From positions 19,789 through 83,788 of the forward strand of contig JBAZJU010000003.1 of NCBI GenBank assembly GCA_041651155.1: DNA of 64,000 nt, in the 5' to 3' direction. The position numbers and the translations under genes are program-made. The notes beneath the pieces were generated by a model that made no database searches, was not told where the DNA came from, and saw only the letters and a list, made by a program, of their open reading frames with translations. Shown piece after piece: positions 1-50,024 of the stretch. Each line of letters begins with the position of its first letter. Position 1 is the first letter of the stretch. The DNA is from Patescibacteria group bacterium (GTDB lineage: Bacteria > Patescibacteriota > Patescibacteriia > CAIXNZ01).

Positions 1-329
1 CCTGCCTTCAAAAAATAGGATTGAATAATTTTTGTGTTCAGCCAGTTTTAATACTTCCCAGCATAGATCTGCTCCCGTTGTAATATTGAATAATTTTTGT
101 CCAAAAATTCTGGCGCCAAGCTTTAAGCCAAAGCCGTCGGGAATGGAAATAAAAGAGTTTTGGATTATCCTTCGAAATTGTTTATCTTTATAACCGACCA
201 GACAAATTTCAGGATTAGGTGTGACAAGATAACTTTTTTTTCCAGTTAATAAAAAATTAGCAATCTCCCCGATTGCTTCATTTAAAGAAATATCATTAAT
301 TTTTGAACCTAGGATGTAAACCTCTTCCA

Positions 330-1757: not shown

Positions 1758-1896
1758 CTTGACAATGAATCTGGCAGATTTATAATTAAGACATAAGTGT
1801 CTTGTGGAAATTTTAGGGCCAAGCCACAAACACTCTTTTTCTCTATTAAAGAGATTCTGGAACCCATTTGGGGACATGCGCTGTCCCCTTTTTTTT
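1758..1896 (+). promoter_or_regulatory. Sigma70-like promoter (TTGACA 1759-1764, 17-nt spacer, TATAAT 1782-1787) driving an approx 100-nt leader that ends in an intrinsic terminator (GGGGACATGCGCTGTCCCC + T8, 1870-1896), upstream of the AmrS radical SAM gene
   Basis: Consensus -35/-10 with 17-nt spacing read directly. GC hairpin followed by 8 T. A competing CCCATTTGGGG hairpin overlaps the terminator's 5' arm. Confidence 0.35.
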
Positions 1897-1908
1897 GTTA
1901 TAATTAGG

Positions 1909-3063: not shown

Positions 3064-3183
3064 AAACGGACAAATTTATATCATAGGCCACTTTAGTGGC
3101 CGTGCGTGAATTCTATAATATTTCTAGGCCGTTTTTTTGCTCAGCTATTGACAATATTTTAATTATATGCTATCATGTCCTTG

Positions 3184-3474
3184 AGATGCCTAGATGGATT
3201 TAATAGGCTTACCCTAGATAAAACTTACTATCCTAAGAAAATTTAGGGGAAAAATCTCTCTATTTAAAAGTAGCAAATTGGATAGAATTTGCGAAATATG
3301 ACCGGGTTGGACTCAAGAGTGGAGATTGAGTCTATTAAAAAAACCCAATAAACCATGCCTTGCATAGCGAGGCGTCCGGACGTAGGAATAATCCGCCTAT
3401 AAAGGACAGAATATACCACTCATATTCTGTGGTTTTTATAAAAATTACGGCCTGCAATCAAGCGGGCCTTTTTT
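3184..3474 (+). ncRNA. Candidate small/structured RNA: promoter TTGACA(3148-3153)-17-TATCAT(3171-3176), no credible ORF, two intrinsic terminators (3405-3437 and 3449-3474)
   Basis: Promoter and terminators read from sequence. Only very short ORFs without an RBS. Internal hairpins (GGACTCAAGAGTGGAGATTGAGTC; palindromic CGTCCGGACG). GC higher than flanks. Confidence 0.3.
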
Positions 3475-4565: not shown

Positions 4566-4744
4566 TTTTCCTCCTCTGTAAAAAGTTTTTGTTTACCAAT
4601 TTAAGGCACATTAACCTTAACATTTTTTACTAAAAAGTCAAGCTTGACATTCACTTTTTTATTTATTATACTAAACTTAGCACTCTTGAAGCTGGAGTGC
4701 TAAATTTCATAATTCAGCATTCATAATTCATAATTATTCAAAAT

Positions 4745-7366
4745 ATGTTTAACCCCAATAAATTAACCACTAAATCCCAGGAAGCTTTGAGAAATGCCCA
4801 GGAAATTGCCATTGACCATCAAAACCAGCAGGTTGATGCTTTGCATTTGCTCGCTTCCCTGCTTACTCAAGACGAAAGTTTAGTTAATACAATTTTAAAA
4901 AAATTGGAAGTTGACCCTGCTCAATTAAAAAATCAGATTTTTCAGGCTATTGAAGCATTCCCAAAAACCAAAGGCGATATAAGCCTGACTCAGATGTTTT
5001 TAACCGAAGATTTAGCCCGAGTTTTAGCTGGCTCAGAAAAAGAAGCTAAAGAATTCAAGGATGAGTATATCTCAACTGAACACATTTTTTTATCAATGTT
5101 AAATACCAAAAGCAAGGTCAAAATTCTTTTGGATTCTTTTGGTATTCAATATGATGCTGTTTTAAAATTATTGGCGCAGCTGCGTGGCTCTACCAGAATT
5201 ACAGATCCGGAACCAGAATCAAAATTCCAGGTTTTGGAAAAGTACGCCCAGAATTTAACAGAAATGGCCAGGCAAGAGAAATTAGATCCGGTCATTGGGC
5301 GTGATTCTGAAATTCGCCGCGTGATGCAGGTTTTATCCCGCAGAACAAAAAATAATCCGGTTTTGATCGGTGAAGCCGGAGTTGGCAAAACAGCCATTGC
5401 CGAAGGTTTAGCGCAAAGAATTGTGGCTGGTGATGTGCCGGAAACTTTAAAAAATAAAGAAGTAATTGCTTTGGATTTGGGTTCTTTAATTGCCGGGACC
5501 AAATTCCGCGGTGAATTTGAGGATCGCTTAAAAGCAGTTTTAAAGGAAGTTGAAAATTCCAATGGCCAGATAATTTTATTTATTGATGAACTGCATACTG
5601 TTGTCGGCGCTGGCGCGATTGAAGGTTCAATGGATGCATCCAATATGTTAAAGCCAGCTTTAGCTCGCGGTAAATTGCATGCCATTGGCGCTACAACTTT
5701 GAAAGAATATCACAAATATATTGAAAAAGATCCTGCTTTAGAAAGACGCTTTCAGCCAGTCATGGTCTTGGAACCTTCTATTGAAGATACGATCGCAATT
5801 TTGCGCGGTATTAAAGATAAATATGAAGTCCATCATGGCGTAAGAATTACTGACTCAGCGATTTTAGCTGCGGCTGAATTTTCTCAAAGATATATTACTG
5901 ACCGTTTTTTGCCTGATAAAGCAGTTGATTTAATAGATGAAGCAACTTCTGCTCTGCGTATGGAAATTGATTCAATGCCTGAGGAGCTTGATAAAATGAA
6001 GCGCAAAACGAAACAGCTGGAAATTGAAAAAGCAGCGCTAAAAAAAGAATCTGATAAAGGCTCAAAGGACAATTTGAAAATTTTAGATAAAGAATTGCAT
6101 GATTTAAAAGAAAAATCCAACCAATTGGAATTGCACTGGAAAAGCGAGAAAGATATTATTACCCAGATTCGCGAAGCCAAAAAGAAAATTGATTCTTTGA
6201 AACAAGAGGCTGATATCTTGGAAAGAAAGGCTGAACTGCAAAAAGTGGCGGAAATTCGTTATGGCCAGATCCCAGCGATTGAAAAGAAAATCAAAGAATT
6301 TGAAAAAAAATTAGCTAATGTGCAAAAAGACCATAAAATTCTGAAAGAAGAAGTAACTGAAGAAGATATTGCCCATGTTGTTTCACGCTGGACAGGCATC
6401 CCGGTTTCCAAAATGCTTGAGTCAGAAATGGCCAAATTAGCCCATGCTGAGGATGAACTGAGAAAACGCGTGGTTGGCCAGCAAGAAGCGATTTCTGCAG
6501 TGGCTAATGCCATCAGGCGCTCACGAGCTGGCGTGTCAGAAGAAAACAGGCCAATTGGCTCATTTATCTTTTTAGGCCCAACTGGCGTGGGTAAAACAGA
6601 ATTAGCCAAAGCTCTGGCTGAATTTATGTTCAATGATGAAAATGCCATGATTCGCGTGGACATGTCTGAATATATGGAAAAGCATTCTGTTTCCAAATTC
6701 ATTGGTTCTCCCCCAGGCTATATCGGCTATGAAGAAGGCGGACAATTAACTGAACAAGTGCGTAGACGCCCCTACTCTGTAGTTTTATTTGATGAAATTG
6801 AAAAAGCCCACCCGGAAGTATTTAATGTTTTATTACAGCTTTTAGATGATGGCCGTTTGACTGATGCCAAAGGACGAGTTGTTAATTTCAAAAATACAAT
6901 TATTATCATGACTTCAAATTTGGGCAATCAGCTTTTGAAAGATGTTTCGCTTGGCTTTGAAGATAAGACACTTAAAAAAGAGAATACAATGGATGAGGAA
7001 AAAATGAAAGAAAAAGTTTATGAAGCCTTAAAAGCCCAGTTTAAACCAGAATTTATTAATCGTCTTGATGAAATAATTATTTTCCATCCTTTAGGTAAAA
7101 AAGAAATTGAAAAAATTATTGAATTACAGCTGGAAATAGTCACCAAGCGTTTGGCTGATAAGAAAATCAAATTAGAGTTTACCAAAGCTTTGGAAGAATA
7201 TCTGGCCAACAAAGGCTTTGATCCCCAATTTGGCGCGCGTCCGCTTAAACGCGTGATTCAAAGTCAAATCCTTGATGATCTGGCTTTGCAGATAATTGAA
7301 GGCAAAATTAAAGAAGGACAGAAAGTTAAGGTTGATGTGGAGAAGGATAAAGTAGTGTTTAAATAA
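4745..7366 (+). CDS. clpB: Chaperone ClpB (two AAA+ modules with coiled-coil middle domain)
   Basis: 873 aa. Two Walker A motifs ([20 protein letters not shown]). Long coiled-coil between the NBDs. Clp N-domain at the N-terminus. Confidence 0.9.
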
Positions 7367-8496: not shown

Positions 8497-8634
8497 AATA
8501 TTGAGGTTATTTTTTATACTTTAAGTATAAACATATGTGTGTTAAAGTCAAATGTTTTTGGTGAATTTTTTGACAATAAAAAAAGCCGCCCTGAACTCAA
8601 AGTTCTAGGGCGGTTTTGTTTTTGCAAGTATTTA

Positions 8635-8880
8635 TTATCCCCTTTTGACAAAAATTGTCACTATTTTGTGGAAATTTGTCTGGCGGAATTTGGTGCTCAT
8701 GCCGAGCAAAACAAGGGTTTTTTCTGGACGATAATCTTCTTTGATTAATTCCTTTGTCTTGTCAGCAGCTTTCTTGTTTTCCATGCGAACGGCCTGGATA
8801 CCGACAATATTTTTCGGGTTTTCCAATTCAATTAGGAGCGGCACGCCTTCAATCCCAGCTTTCTTTTTTTTGCCTTCCAT
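8635..8880 (-). CDS. Hypothetical small protein (81 aa)
   Basis: ORF with strong RBS AAGGAGG 8 nt upstream of the ATG. No family recognised. Confidence 0.3.
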   Translation of the reverse strand: MEGKKKKAGIEGVPLLIELENPKNIVGIQAVRMENKKAADKTKELIKEDYRPEKTLVLLGMSTKFRQTNFHKIVTIFVKRG

Positions 8881-8964
8881 TTTTTACCTCCTTAATGGAT
8901 TTTAGTTAAAGTTATCAGAAATGATAGTTTTTGTCCACGCAGCTCTTCACAATAGCTATATAAA

Positions 8965-9472
8965 ATTCAAAGGCCCCGTTAAAAATGCATTCAAGCATTT
9001 TGTAACGGGGCCGAGTGTGGAGAGAAAACCTTCTTTGTCGTAGCCGCCAGCGTATAAAAAGGCGTCCTCATCTACATGCAATAGCATGTTCGCCTAAGAT
9101 TCTCTGGTAGCTTTTTTGCGGGCATGCAGATTATGACGTTCCGGTACCGTATGAACATCTCGTTTCGGCGCTCCTAGGTTGCGCCATAGTCACGGGCCGG
9201 ATTGAAGCGTGATTGTGCTTGAACGCCCATTAGAACATCGGATTTTTTAGACGTTCGGCACATTTTCGACGGTCGCCCATGGTGCGTCCGTTTGAATCTC
9301 AAACTTTCGATCATCAGGATTCGGCCTTCCATGATAGGCCTTTCAATCGTATTTTTCGAGAATTTCGAAGTCAATTGGCCGGATCGCGGCAGTTTTTACA
9401 AATCCCGCGTTCCGGAAGTTTTTTCCCGCATAAAATCGGAAGGTTTTAAGAACTCGATTCTCCACACTTTAT
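8965..9472 (-). ncRNA. Candidate approx 450-500 nt structured ncRNA (minus strand): consensus promoter, 5'/3' closing helix, strong terminator hairpin, GC-rich, no ORF
   Basis: Minus-strand promoter TTGACA (rc of 9503-9508), 17-nt spacer, TATGAT (rc of 9480-9485). 5' GUGUGGAGA pairs with 3' UCUCCACAC (plus coordinates 9458-9467 and 9015-9024). A 17-bp compound hairpin at 8972-9012 is followed by a U-rich tract. GC about 50% versus about 35% in flanks. Confidence 0.35.
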
Positions 9473-9527
9473 GATTAACATCATAGCATATCTATAAGAT
9501 TTTGTCAAGACTATGGCGGTTTTTGAT

Positions 9528-9556
9528 TTGAAATAAATGATTTTATATGCTATTAT
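9528..9556 (+). promoter_or_regulatory. Promoter TTGAAA-17-TATTAT placing the TSS at or within 1-2 nt of the 9563 start codon (leaderless mRNA candidate)
   Basis: -35 at 9528-9533, -10 at 9551-9556, ATG at 9563, no Shine-Dalgarno. Confidence 0.4.
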
Positions 9557-9562
9557 TAGAAT

Positions 9563-10966
9563 ATGACAAAATCTAAAATTTGCACAATTTTATTATTTTT
9601 AAGTTTACTTTTATCCCCTATTTTAGCCGTAAACCCAGCTTTAGCTTTTGATTTTGATCCTAATGATATTATTTCTGATGGGGATTTACAGGATTATAGC
9701 ACCATGGATATGAATGCGATCCAGGATTTTTTAAATAATCAAAAAGGTATTTTAAAAACATACAACACAAATGATAATTTTGGCATTACCAGATCAGCAG
9801 CTGAAATTATTTATAATGCAGCCCAGACATATAAAATTAATCCTAAATGGATTTTAGCTACCTTGCAAAAAGAACAAAGCTTAGTAACTAACCCAACGCC
9901 TAAGCAGCGCGATTTAGATTGGGCCATGGGCTATGCGGTTTGTGATTCCTGCTCAACCGATGATCCCCAGATTGCTATGTTTAAAGGCTTTGGCACGCAG
10001 GTTGATCGCGCTACCTATCGCATCAGATATTATTATGATCATCCCAATGAATTTAATTATAAGATTGGGCAGCAATGCACAATAGATGGCCAAAATGTTT
10101 CTCCTTATAGCCAGGCCACTGCCAATTTGTATATTTACACTCCTCATTTGAAAGGCAATTATAATTTTTGGAATATCTGGAATCGCTGGTTTTCTAAAAT
10201 TTATCCGGATGGCACATTAATTCAGCAAACAGGCAGTGATAAAGTTTGGTTAATTGCCGGTGGCAAGCGCCGTGAATTTTGGTCAAAATCTGCGTTAGCA
10301 AGCCGTTTCGGCACTAATAGAATTACTGAGGTTTCTAAAAATGATTTGCAAAGATATGAAATCGGCTATCCGATTAAATATGCCAATTATTCGCTGTTGA
10401 AATCACCGGCTGGCAAAATCTACCTGATTGTTAATAATGAAAAAAAGGAAATTGAATCAGCTGAAGTTTTTCGCGAAATTGGTTATAATGAAGATGAGGT
10501 GATTGAGGTGACAGATGAAGAATTGTCATATTATGCTGATGGCCGCCAAATTACTTTAAATAGCCTTTATCCGCAAGGCGCATTGCTTCAAGATAAAAAT
10601 ACAGGCGGAGTTTATTATGTTGAAGACGGCATTAAATATCCGATCTGGTCAAAAGAAATTTTAGCTATAAATTATAATAAGAGTTATAAGGTCACTAAAG
10701 TCAGTCCTGAAGAACTGGATAAATATGTGACAGCAGCAAATGGCGTTAAATTGAGAGACGGCACGCTTGTAAAATTACCCGCAGAAAATAAAGTTTATGT
10801 GATTTCCAATGGCCAGCGACGCTGGATTAGCAATGAAAATACTTTTAATCAATTGGGTTATACCTGGTCAGAAGTTATAACAGTCAATGACAAAGTCTTT
10901 AGCTTGCATCCACAGGGAGAAGATCTTGATCTCTTGGTAGGCAATACCAAAATAGCAACTAATTAA
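9563..10966 (+). CDS. Secreted protein with four approx 55-aa C-terminal repeats (KxYLIxxGxRRxIxSxxxFxxLGY...V core)
   Basis: 467 aa. Signal peptide MTKSKICTILLFLSLLLSPILAVNPALA. Internal repeats visible by eye (KVWLIAGGKRREF..., KIYLIVNNEKKEI..., GVYYVEDGIKYPI..., KVYVISNGQRRWI...). Confidence 0.5.
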   Translation: MTKSKICTILLFLSLLLSPILAVNPALAFDFDPNDIISDGDLQDYSTMDMNAIQDFLNNQKGILKTYNTNDNFGITRSAAEIIYNAAQTYKINPKWILATLQKEQSLVTNPTPKQRDLDWAMGYAVCDSCSTDDPQIAMFKGFGTQVDRATYRIRYYYDHPNEFNYKIGQQCTIDGQNVSPYSQATANLYIYTPHLKGNYNFWNIWNRWFSKIYPDGTLIQQTGSDKVWLIAGGKRREFWSKSALASRFGTNRITEVSKNDLQRYEIGYPIKYANYSLLKSPAGKIYLIVNNEKKEIESAEVFREIGYNEDEVIEVTDEELSYYADGRQITLNSLYPQGALLQDKNTGGVYYVEDGIKYPIWSKEILAINYNKSYKVTKVSPEELDKYVTAANGVKLRDGTLVKLPAENKVYVISNGQRRWISNENTFNQLGYTWSEVITVNDKVFSLHPQGEDLDLLVGNTKIATN

Positions 10967-22557: not shown

Positions 22558-23186
22558 TTGACATTTTTTTAAATATATGATAGTGTAATAATGCGGTTGG
22601 GAGGGCTGTATATACAGTTCGTTGAAGCGCATAACGCTAATATCCTACTCCAATCCATTTCAAATTGGTTTGGAAAAGTCTGCAATCACGCAGTCTTAAG
22701 ATATAAGCGTGCATCACCTGGCTGCATTAAAATTTTTTTCCCAGAAACTCGAAGGTTTGCGGCTTTTCCTGAGAGTACTTATTGGGGAAAAGGCATCAAT
22801 TCTGTAAAGAAAGAAGATGTCAAAGAGCCGATTTATTTATCATTTAACCTTGCTATTCTGGCAGGGTTTTTTATTTTTAAATTTTTGACTGGGGTTTGGG
22901 TTTGATTTTGAAAATTTAATTAAACTATTGACAAATTAATTATATTTTGTTAAGATATTTTTATGAGATTAAGGTAGAGCAACGAAAGAATTCCTAAATA
23001 AGGATCCAGTTTAGGAATTGTTTCAAATAATGGTGCCTTAACTATGGGCTCAGCTCTTTGCTGAGTGCAAACTGGTTAGCACACTCGATGTTCCTTGACC
23101 TTATCAAGTTCTGCATTGCATTATTATGCCTTAATCTCTGGCGAATATTCCACCCTGTCAATTCTGGCAGGGTGTTTTCTTTTTTA
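22558..23186 (+). ncRNA. Candidate noncoding transcription unit with two promoters (TTGACA at 22558 and 22928, each with an extended -10 TGtTAAGAT-type element), ending at the terminator 23150-23186
   Basis: No ORF with an RBS (the 104-aa ORF 22591-22905 lacks an RBS and has odd composition). Strong internal hairpins such as AATTCCTAAA...TTTAGGAATT. GC higher than the genome. Confidence 0.25.
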
Positions 23187-23204
23187 AATTTTTAGGTACG
23201 ATAC

Positions 23205-23585
23205 TTGACATTTTTATAATTTTTGTTAAGCTATATTTGTGTTAGGGAAGAGAGTCCTAAGTAAAAGGAAAACAGTATCGCCGAAAGTATGCTGCTGAAT
23301 GGATTTTTGGGGGTGATGGCAAAAGTCCCTCACAATTCAGGTAGGAAAGAACACGAAATCTTACAACTAGAAAGTAATGTTATTCTCGGCAAAGGGTACC
23401 CTTTGTTATCCTACCTTCCCTAACCGCTAATAGTCAGTTGAGGTGGAGAATGCCTTTGACACGGAGTGTGGAGGCGAGGGACGCCCATTCCTCAAGTAAG
23501 GGCTCAATCTCGGCTGGAAGTCCAGTTGCCTTACTCATCTCAACTGATTTGCTAATTACCCAGTCAACTGACCGGGTTTTTTATT
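23205..23585 (+). ncRNA. Candidate approx 360-nt structured ncRNA (TTGACA 23205-23210, extended -10 TGtTAAGCT, terminator 23559-23584); alternatively carries a weak 44-codon ORF (23289-23423)
   Basis: Promoter and terminator delimit a unit with no ORF of 60 aa or more. GC about 45%. Long-range complementarity GTCCCTC (about 23322) with GAGGGAC (about 23485). Confidence 0.3.
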
Positions 23586-23667
23586 TAAAGTAATTCATAA
23601 CTGCTTTTTATAATAGCAATATTTTAGGTAATTTAAAAGGGTATTCTGAAGCGAATACCCTTATTTA

Positions 23668-49024: not shown

Positions 49025-49198
49025 ATCTAGGTCAAGCTTAATTGCCTGCAGCAGGTCTTGGGTTAGCGCCAGCGACGACCCTTAAAAAAGAACTGCGAAT
49101 GCAGACAAACCGTATTCTGGATATTCGGTTGCTTGAACTAAGGTTGCTGGCACAACCCCGCGGATAATCTTTAAAAAAAGATATTGAAGCGGGGTTTT
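49025..49198 (+). ncRNA. Possible approx 160-nt small RNA (weak promoter TTGACA 48995-49000; compound terminator hairpin CCCCGC...GCGGGG + TTTT at 49156-49198)
   Basis: No ORF. Terminator-like hairpin with T-tract on the plus strand. Promoter -10 is weak (TAATTT), so confidence is low. Confidence 0.2.
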
Positions 49199-50024
49199 AA
49201 ATTTCTACTAATTGATAATCATTTTTTGACTTTACGCCAATGCCCAGTTCAACTGCGTGTTTAATTTGAGTTAATGCCCAGGGATCAGTGCCTAGTTTAT
49301 TATTTGCTTTATAACTTTGAATAATTTTAATTCCTTCAATATCAATGGCAACCATGTCATTTGAGGCCATTAAAACTTTGGGTTCTTCAAGCTTGCCTTT
49401 GTCTGGTCCGCCTTCAGTAAAACATTTTCGGCCATCCATGATGATTAGAGAGGGTTTAATAACAGAGGCAACCTCAGCAACTCTTTCCTGTAGATGATTT
49501 AAATGTAAGAGGCTTCTTTGTGAAGGCTTGAGCATGCCAATATTTATTTTTAAAGCGCCTGTATAAGCAGCCAAGAAATGAGTTTTTAAACAAGGCAGTA
49601 AAATAATCTTATCTACCTCTTGAACTATTTTAGGAATCTTGATGCTTTTAAAATATTTTCCGCCGGGAACATTAACTTTAACCCAATCCCCTGTTTCAAA
49701 ATTATGCCAAGTGACATTAAATTTTTGCATCACTTCAGGCGCGCCAATATCATGGCAAACCTTTTCAGTATTTAAAAAATAGGTGCATGATTCACCTACT
49801 ATTAATTCTTTTGGCTTAGCTTCAGAAAATATTTCAATCACAGCTTGAAGGAAATCTATGGATGTTGAACCAGGAAAAGGATCAGAGGTATTGAAATTGG
49901 GTTTTAATAAAACTCGGTCAGTGGGTTTGATGAAATCTGAAAGATTGCCGATGATTGGCTGGATTAATTTATGGATGTCGGTCTTAAGTGAGTCTGATGA
50001 TTTGGTTTTAGTTACTAAATACAT
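49197..50024 (-). CDS. DUF362-family protein
   Basis: 275 aa. RVLLKPNFN (KPN motif) and overall pattern typical of DUF362. Confidence 0.5.
   Translation of the reverse strand: MYLVTKTKSSDSLKTDIHKLIQPIIGNLSDFIKPTDRVLLKPNFNTSDPFPGSTSIDFLQAVIEIFSEAKPKELIVGESCTYFLNTEKVCHDIGAPEVMQKFNVTWHNFETGDWVKVNVPGGKYFKSIKIPKIVQEVDKIILLPCLKTHFLAAYTGALKINIGMLKPSQRSLLHLNHLQERVAEVASVIKPSLIIMDGRKCFTEGGPDKGKLEEPKVLMASNDMVAIDIEGIKIIQSYKANNKLGTDPWALTQIKHAVELGIGVKSKNDYQLVEI

Follow-up and report, generated by a model that had tools for sequence, protein, structure and literature searches.

A candidate large structured RNA gene with a conserved terminal handle and a variable interior in Patescibacteria

Introduction

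Bacterial noncoding RNAs (ncRNAs) that exceed about 300 nt and have a conserved structure are rare, and, to our knowledge, every such large class so far (RNase P, transfer-messenger RNA (tmRNA), group I/II introns, OLE, GOLLD, ROOL, and HEARO) is a ribozyme, a ribonucleoprotein machine, or an RNA assembly. OLE, GOLLD, ROOL, HEARO, and raiA were found, like the RNA described here, by GC enrichment in AT-rich genomes. In this study, we analyzed a 64,000-nt stretch (hereafter the window) of contig JBAZJU010000003.1 from an uncultured Patescibacteria group bacterium, with emphasis on the minus-strand region 9472-8961. An earlier note, made from the letters of this stretch, had described the region as a promoter-to-terminator unit for a large structured ncRNA and had left open whether it is a divergent housekeeping RNA or a novel large RNA. 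We find that the region is a transcription-unit-like, non-coding element with conserved structure, and it very probably represents a real gene for a novel structured ncRNA. Judging by the sequences collected here, its family is narrowly distributed in a Parcubacteria clade whose named relatives are Buchananbacteria and Falkowbacteria.

Promoter, transcript ends and fold of the RNA

The window copy of the RNA gene consists of the following parts, listed from the promoter to the end of the predicted transcript (MFE, minimum free energy).

9480-9508, minus strand: sigma-70-type promoter, with the -35 element TTGACA at 9508-9503, a 17-nt spacer, and the TG-extended -10 element TATGAT at 9485-9480; predicted +1 near 9472
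8961-9472, minus strand: predicted primary transcript, ~510 nt, 46% GC
9459-9468, minus strand: P1 5' strand AGUGUGGAGA, 10 bp with 9014-9023, closing the MFE structure
9439-9447, minus strand: P2 5' strand AAAACCUUC, family consensus ACCUUCC, perfect complement of 9025-9033
9425-9429, minus strand: P4 5' strand GCGGG, a long-range pairing with CCCGC at 9118-9122
9379-9415, minus strand: conserved 5' hairpin CCGGA-CGCGG ... CCGCG-UCCGG, with two compensatory pairs (A:U/C:G and C:G/U:A)
9123-9378, minus strand: variable interior, several GC-rich hairpins with A-rich linkers
9118-9122, minus strand: P4 3' strand CCCGC, invariant in the window copy and the homologs L173 and L090
9041-9112, minus strand: conserved 3' domain, in which AGCU-CCAG/CUGG-GGCU encloses GGCG/CGCC, which encloses the hairpin ACAUGC-UAUU-GCAUGU
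9025-9033, minus strand: P2 3' strand GAAGGUUUU, family consensus GGAAGG
9014-9023, minus strand: P1 3' strand UCUCCACACU, partner of 9459-9468
8972-9012, minus strand: GGCCCCG...CGGGGCC hairpin, 10+7 bp with one bulged C, -27.9 kcal/mol, kept in the family and serving as the terminator stem in the window copy
8961-8971, minus strand: U-rich tract UUUGAAUUUUA, directly after the hairpin

The near-consensus minus-strand promoter (TTGACA-17-TATGAT) reported earlier is present, matches the consensus at 11 of 12 positions with a TG upstream of the -10 element, and is the best among 11 promoter-like sites in 8500-9800. It is an ordinary promoter type of this genome and nothing exceptional: 34 TTGAC(A/T)-16..18-TAnnnT sites were found in the window, mostly preceding genes with a Shine-Dalgarno (SD) sequence and an ATG. 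At the other end, the 17-bp compound hairpin and U-rich tract that the earlier note had taken for a terminator were recovered at 9012-8972, and the sequence after the hairpin reads UUUGAAUUUUAU. A consensus terminator scan did not call this hairpin, probably because its stem is bulged. The GC enrichment noted earlier holds as well (46% against 36.1% for the window), while the figure of 50% given for it is too high as a mean (0.46 over 8961-9472) and is reached only in 200-nt peaks of 0.51-0.52.

The 516-nt stretch containing the RNA folds with an MFE of -174.3 kcal/mol, compared with -136.4 +/- 5.9 kcal/mol for dinucleotide shuffles (z = -6.4). A helix joining the two ends, as had been proposed, is indeed part of the MFE structure, but it is not formed by the first 9 nt of the transcript: GUGUGGAGA begins ~5 nt after the predicted +1. 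By simple arithmetic, the chance of finding a perfect complement of a given 9-mer within 500 nt is ~0.002. Next to this helix, P2 was found in the MFE structures of five other homologs that were folded and in both consensus folds, and enforcing P1, P2, and P4 together in the window copy costs only 0.2 kcal/mol over the MFE and reproduces the 3' domain of the family.

Homologs and structural conservation

To collect homologs, the proteins encoded on the two sides of the RNA gene were used as anchors.

9563-10966, plus strand: gene of a 467-aa secreted protein (identical to NCBI WC460_03165), divergent from the RNA gene
8635-8880, minus strand: gene of an 81-aa protein with a promoter-like site of its own and a strong SD sequence, 90 nt downstream of the RNA

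The first anchor has 1,586 homologs, from which syntenic DNA was taken from individual contigs, 80 GTDB genomes, and 80 metagenome contigs; the 81-aa neighbor was the second anchor. With the window RNA and family profiles, nhmmer detected six further distinct sequences, named here by locus: L173, L090 (= L168/L169), L002 (= L089/L003), L008, L088, and L300. The flanking protein of these homologs is 73-79% identical to that of the window. The distance from P1 to its 3' partner is 453 nt in the window and 434, 466, 272, 551, 518, and ~470 nt in the homologs.

All seven copies share a consensus promoter (the six homologs have the same layout as the window), P1, an asymmetric internal loop, P2 (ACCUUCC/GGAAGG), the 3' domain, and the GC-rich hairpin. 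The 3' domain is closed by (G)CCAG/CUGG(C) just before the P2 3' strand, and its nhmmer profile matches all family members; the GGCCCCG...CGGGGCC hairpin follows 2-4 nt after P1. In homologs, P1 is kept as GUGUGGGGA/UCCCCACAC, with an A:U to G:C change. The window copy, L173, and L090 additionally share P4 and the 5' hairpin, and, since a matching GCGGG/CCCGC pair can be seen by eye in L002, P4 appears to be present there too. The subgroup of L008, L088, and L300 folds independently to the same outer architecture.

Covariation in homologous intergenic regions, which the earlier note had suggested as a check, also favors a conserved fold. RNAalifold predicts 83 pairs for the window copy, L173, and L090, 18 of which show compensatory double changes. 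Among the 53 outer pairs of these three closest sequences, pairing holds in 94% of cells and compensatory changes occur in 10 pairs, values reached by none of 500 shuffles (slid-partner controls gave 0-3), for a test structure that was itself derived from the same three sequences. Together with the fold statistics and the absence of a coding signal (see below), these compensatory helices bear out the reading of the region as a stand-alone promoter-to-terminator gene of a large structured ncRNA.

The interior behaves differently from the ends. It is partly alignable with L173 and L090, is unrelated in L002 and the L008 group, and shows no relationship between subgroups. In the interior of L008 (2828-2993 and 2544-2744), there are three 62-nt hairpin modules in tandem, which share a 33-nt core at 70-79% identity, as well as two copies of a 32-nt element 169 nt apart. 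The interior thus seems to expand through the duplication of modules; internal repeats do not occur in the window copy. L173 carries an extra domain of ~190 nt between P1 and the terminal hairpin. Overall, the RNA is 64% identical to the window copy in L173 and 50% in L090, where the neighboring proteins are 79% and 73% identical, respectively.

Of the six homologs, L008, L088, and L300 have a U tract after the GC-rich hairpin and L002, L090, and L173 do not; in the latter three, the transcript probably runs into a further small domain. A conserved small RNA domain of ~110 nt (…AUGCUUCGCUUUUUAUARAGCCGGCA…AGAAGCA…) was observed directly 3' of the large RNA in four loci.

L002, 7420-7570, minus strand: small RNA domain
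L169, ~1800-1900, minus strand: small RNA domain
L173, 1-90, minus strand: small RNA domain
L296, 480-615, plus strand: small RNA domain, with its own promoter and placed after a non-homologous large unit

Because the GC-rich hairpin lacks a U tract in L002, L090, and L173, the large RNA and the small domain may be one transcript in these loci. As a separate observation, the contigs L294, L295, L296/L297, L299, and L173 end inside or beside the RNA region, which fits strain-level variability breaking assemblies.

Coding potential

The two open reading frames (ORFs) that the earlier note had listed for the region are present.

9174-9374, minus strand: 66-aa ORF, no Pfam match
9292-9474, plus strand: 60-aa ORF, no Pfam match

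In pairwise alignments of homologs, gap lengths are divisible by three in 0/16, 5/20, and 6/13 cases, and mismatches are evenly distributed over the three codon phases. The longest stop-free frames lie on different strands and in different frames in different copies, and no SD-preceded ORF conserved across the RNA family was found. A protein frame conserved in relatives, which the earlier note had named as the finding that would speak against its view, is thus not seen, nor is any three-nucleotide periodicity. A protein-coding interpretation of the region, including the 211-aa opposite-strand ORF of L173, was therefore rejected: frames are broken, periodicity is lacking, and there are no Pfam matches.

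Nevertheless, public annotations place genes of 73-211 aa on the RNA genes, in many cases on the opposite strand; these calls have no Pfam match and no conservation, and are probably annotation artifacts of GC-rich, stop-poor RNA genes.

L173, 85-720: 211-aa call
L168, 2027-2248: 73-aa call
L296, 24-419: 131-aa call
L300, 1574-1972: 132-aa call
L171/L172: 114-aa call

Proposed role and alternative explanations

Taken as a whole, the results are best explained by a new, clade-restricted, fast-evolving, trans-acting structured RNA with a conserved handle, a reading that we hold with moderate confidence. Under this proposal, a strong standard promoter would drive an RNA of ~500 nt, and the GC-rich hairpin and U tract would end transcription. 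The transcript would then form a terminal handle, in which P1 joins the ends and is followed by the asymmetric internal loop, P2, further long-range helices, and the 3' domain, with the hairpin placed after P1. The interior, ~130-400 nt of GC-rich hairpins and A-rich linkers, would change quickly by insertions, deletions, and module duplication. The RNA would act in trans as a stable RNA, which is suggested by the unconserved gene order and by the separate promoter-like site of the downstream gene. The handle would protect the RNA ends and probably provide a binding platform for a protein partner, with the interior as a lineage-specific module; this role is favored because the handle is the most conserved part while the interior varies. 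That the RNA works as a scaffold or by sequestering or otherwise binding a protein is a tentative suggestion.

The 81-aa protein is a candidate for such a partner by co-occurrence, its binding to RNA being neither supported nor excluded. Of the six family loci with a readable neighborhood, five have its gene beside the RNA, with homologs in L002, L008, and L300 and a distant one (31% identical) in L088. The protein has no Pfam match and only 14 homologs; its AlphaFold model is poor (predicted local distance difference test score of 60), and the best Foldseek match in PDB has an E-value of ~1. The promoter-like site of the gene reads GTGGACA-17-TAACTT in the window and TTGACA-17-TAGCTT in L008. 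Moreover, gene order is not kept: the 81-aa homolog is located upstream of the RNA in L088, and a 141-aa gene intervenes in L300. The RNA gene therefore appears to stand alone.

Several points weigh against this proposal. L090 lacks the 81-aa gene, and L298/L299 have the gene but not this RNA; no recognizable RNA-binding fold was found in its product by Pfam, the AlphaFold model, or Foldseek. Transcription and the transcript ends are predictions. Covariation statistics are weakened by the size of the family (seven sequences in three subgroups), and the use of the same three sequences for structure and test inflates the comparison with controls, which makes the test supportive rather than conclusive. 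The survey was anchored by synteny on the flanking proteins, so that RNA copies in other contexts would escape it. Finally, the fast divergence (50-64% nucleotide identity) and the loss in relatives could mean weak selection.

Among the alternatives, the one that survives best, and is still unlikely, is a regulatory small RNA (sRNA) that base-pairs in trans through a single-stranded seed carried on a structured scaffold. Its own promoter and terminator, intergenic location, fast turnover, and narrow distribution are all typical of sRNAs. However, at ~500 nt and with nearly all of its length structured, the RNA is far above the size of a typical base-pairing sRNA, and its conserved parts are helices rather than an exposed seed. 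The longest antisense match in the rest of the window (which is ~6% of a genome of this size) is 12 nt, which does not exceed the 11-15 nt obtained for shuffled RNA.

An improbable alternative is that the region is a weakly selected or selfish sequence, such as a decaying gene remnant or a neutral transcribed GC-rich insertion. The RNA is patchily present, diverges fast, varies in length, lies at a variable spot between conserved genes, and has spurious ORFs placed on it by gene callers, all of which would suit this explanation. Against it, helices are kept through compensatory changes, the folding energy is far below that of shuffled sequences in every copy, and the complete promoter and terminal hairpin are retained in 7/7 copies. 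There is also no protein similarity or coding periodicity, the window contains a single copy, and a blastn search against 50,697 phage records gave no match to the RNA. A scan of viral contigs with TGTGGGGA-N(8-24)-ACCTTCC returned at least 120 matches; among the matches listed, none fit the 5' or 3' family profiles, and they are therefore regarded as chance hits.

Less probable again is a cis-acting leader, in which read-through into the 81-aa gene would be governed by P1 and the terminator hairpin. Here, a terminator-like hairpin directly follows a P1-closed domain, the next gene, 90 nt farther on, has the same orientation, and read-through is plausible in L002, L090, and L173, whose hairpin lacks the U tract. 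Yet the 81-aa gene has its own promoter-like site, and its variable position (upstream in L088, behind the 141-aa gene in L300, absent in L090) contradicts a cis-regulatory role. In addition, same-build units, both in relatives and at other positions in the window, are followed by convergent genes, whose 3' ends they face, and no alternative antiterminator pairing was seen.

The possibility of a highly divergent housekeeping RNA (RNase P RNA, tmRNA, 6S, signal recognition particle (SRP) RNA, or similar), which the earlier note had kept, is remote. It would fit with the size of the RNA, its strong promoter, the helix that joins its ends, and its high GC content within an AT-rich genome. However, none of the 4,227 models of Rfam 15 matched the window, 14 related loci, or 20 further loci at gathering score, and relaxed searches (E<=10 on 8600-9800 and E<=1 on six homologous loci) gave only chance-level hits to small nucleolar RNA, microRNA, CRISPR direct repeat (CRISPR-DR), and IS128 models. 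ARAGORN found neither tmRNA nor tRNA in the window, in agreement with the earlier failure to recognize RNase P, tmRNA, or SRP motifs. Sequence conservation is limited to the terminal helices, and universal core motifs are lacking. Furthermore, among close relatives the same site holds unrelated RNAs or, as in L020/L093, L094, L095, and L298, no unit at all, which argues against a housekeeping function. The other option raised in the note, a novel large RNA, is the one left standing by these scans.

Least probable of all is a small-peptide mRNA or dual-function RNA, to which a second-clade unit at the same site with a clear AAGGAGG ribosome-binding site (RBS) and an MGIRYGPF... ORF, and a 28-aa ORF beginning MFIRY in the window RNA, lend some appeal, but the MFIRY ATG is not conserved in L173 or L090, there is no family-wide SD ORF, indels break every frame, and codon periodicity is lacking.

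Known RNA families and other element classes

As far as covariance models can tell, the RNA is not an RNase P RNA, tmRNA, 6S RNA, SRP RNA, or known large ornate RNA. It has no covariance-model match to RNase P RNA (types A and B), lacks the CR-I/CR-V (P4) sequences, and is not conserved in close relatives. For tmRNA, there was neither an ARAGORN call nor an Rfam match. 6S RNA, a rod of ~180-200 nt, was rejected on the lack of an Rfam match and on predicted structures that are multi-branched and 272-551 nt long, and SRP RNA on the lack of a match to Rfam SRP models at gathering or relaxed scores. OLE, GOLLD, ROOL, HEARO, raiA, and the other large ncRNAs in Rfam had no covariance-model match in the window or the 34 related loci. 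Y RNA models were not matched, and no TROVE/Ro-like gene was present among the neighbors examined, most of the genome lying outside the window.

Other classes of elements were considered and rejected. An ncRNA of a retron or diversity-generating retroelement is not indicated, as no reverse transcriptase is among the called neighbors in L001, L002, and L004 and no second copy of the RNA is found in the window. A mobile repeat resembling miniature inverted-repeat transposable elements does not agree with a single copy in 64 kb; the other units in the window differ in their ends and have no mutual similarity. For a riboswitch or attenuator leader, the downstream gene should not differ, be absent, or be convergent among homologs and analogous units, as it is here, nor have its own promoter-like site. 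A full-text search of the published literature found no description of ncRNAs of this kind in Patescibacteria.

Similar units in relatives and in the window

At the same site in relatives whose flanking proteins are 64-71% identical, no sequence similarity to the RNA was detected (the comparison did not cover the relatives' whole genomes). Most of these relatives carry one to three units of the same build there, that is, a promoter, a 5' end that pairs just before the terminator hairpin, and a terminator; for the curated analogous units, the ends were set by visual inspection, and the table comparing these units is therefore partly circular.

L004/L010, L014, L015, L017, L091, L092, L006, L172, L296: same-build units in relatives
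L011: three same-build units

In a second clade (~47% protein identity), a structured promoter-to-terminator unit of 300-500 nt lies upstream of the 467-aa homolog. It has the AAGGAGG RBS with an ORF of 23-32 aa (e.g., MGIRYGPF…STST*) and a conserved GUCGAC…CUGACC…GCCGGCGCC block.

L031, L041, L045, L048, L055, L099, L106, L130: loci of the second clade

The window itself contains at least six further units of the same build and a weaker seventh candidate.

3183-3445, plus strand: same-build unit
22592-22875, plus strand: same-build unit
22963-23190, plus strand: same-build unit
23238-23590, plus strand: same-build unit with two helix-closed domains
49028-49200, plus strand: same-build unit
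59056-58745, minus strand: same-build unit
1793-1905, plus strand: weaker seventh candidate, z = -2.7

Fold z-scores of the six units range from -3.4 to -6.7. Those at 3183, 49028, and 59056, and the candidate at 1793, are GC-rich, have a consensus promoter, and pair their 5' end before the terminator (z -2.7 to -4.6). The six units have no Rfam match and resemble neither one another nor any fetched locus, and the k-mers shared among window units are only A/T-rich words, without a common motif. Together with the RNA, they amount to ~2.1 kb, or ~3% of the window. The adjoining genes are ordinary chromosomal ones (a Wzy-like ligase, Trp/Tyr-tRNA synthetase, radical-SAM enzymes, PRPP synthetase, and DUF362).

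Some details of these units deserve separate mention. In the three tandem units at 22558-23590 (plus strand), the terminators at 22858 and 23160 and a hairpin at ~22520 upstream of the first unit share related stems and loops (CCCUGUCAAUUCUGGCAGGG-like), and the first of these units probably gave rise to a false 104-aa ORF call at 22591-22905. A second copy of the 59-kb unit's terminator (GAGAGAGAGUCAACUGAUUCUCUCUC) lies at ~59140.

These genomes probably contain many genes of this kind, of which the RNA gene described here is one. With at least seven mutually unrelated end-joined units in the window (~3%), and with non-homologous RNAs of the same build at a given site in relatives, it is conceivable, though doubtful, that this RNA belongs to a large, fast-evolving repertoire of stand-alone structured RNAs in the Parcubacteria clade.

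Genomic setting

The RNA gene occupies a 1.07-kb gap between the 467-aa gene and the 81-aa gene (8880-8635, minus strand), the latter being followed by a 359-aa membrane protein and clpB. Named relatives of the 467-aa protein belong to Candidatus Buchananbacteria, Falkowbacteria, or Parcubacteria. In L300, the RNA adjoins a radical-SAM gene instead of the 467-aa gene, with clpB and the small-protein gene still nearby.

Additional features were observed around these genes. The 467-aa gene seems to be leaderless: its -10 element TATTAT ends 6 nt before the ATG at 9563, without an SD sequence (9528-9565, plus strand), and a leaderless-type layout (…TAGCATA…CAT, reverse strand) recurs in most loci homologous to this gene. 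A perfect CIRCE element (TTAGCACTC-N9-GAGTGCTAA) at 4677-4703 (plus strand) lies between a TTGACA-17-TATACT promoter and clpB (4745-7366), pointing to HrcA-type heat-shock control of clpB. In another part of the window, the 17-nt motif UUUUAAAACCUCCUCGG occurs in two successive 5' leaders (59953-59937 and 59645-59629, minus strand); it carries an anti-SD-like CCUCC and may be a translational control element.

Significance and comparison with known systems

At the family level this RNA is new, with no detectable relation to any described RNA family; the stand-alone structured ncRNA is already a familiar category. What is unusual is its pattern of evolution, a conserved terminal handle around a hypervariable interior that duplicates modules. 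The density of unrelated units and the false ORFs that gene callers place on them suggest that these genomes have an RNA content that has been systematically overlooked. If a repertoire of such units extended genome-wide, these episymbionts with reduced genomes would keep dozens of large structured RNAs as an accessory "RNA genome", and diversifying roles, e.g., in host interaction or defense, would be well served by a handle that is conserved and a body that varies.

Like OLE, GOLLD, ROOL, HEARO, and raiA, the RNA is a stand-alone, multi-branched molecule of several hundred nucleotides that has GC-rich helices, A-rich linkers, and GNRA-like loops and lacks a known function. Those RNAs differ from it in their extensive conserved cores and wide phylogenetic range, whereas here a handle alone is conserved around a hypervariable interior, in seven genomes. 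With bacterial RNase P RNA (types A and B) it shares a length in the range of 350-500 nt, a P1 that pairs the ends, adjacent long-range helices, and strong expression (predicted from the promoter in our case), but it is set apart by the missing covariance-model match and CR-I/CR-V and by the lack of conservation in close relatives. 6S RNA and Ms1 also combine a poorly conserved sequence with a conserved end-closing stem, a strong promoter, and a stand-alone gene; in contrast to them, this RNA is multi-branched rather than a rod with a central bubble, 2-3 times longer than 6S RNA, and, in some relatives, not found at the syntenic site. Y RNAs, the partners of Ro/Rsr, are much shorter (~100-150 nt), have a tRNA-like module, and are encoded beside rsr, and their models gave no match here. 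Nevertheless, they too place a conserved stem with an internal loop, formed by the two ends, on a variable module, and they offer the closest analogy for a handle with a variable body.

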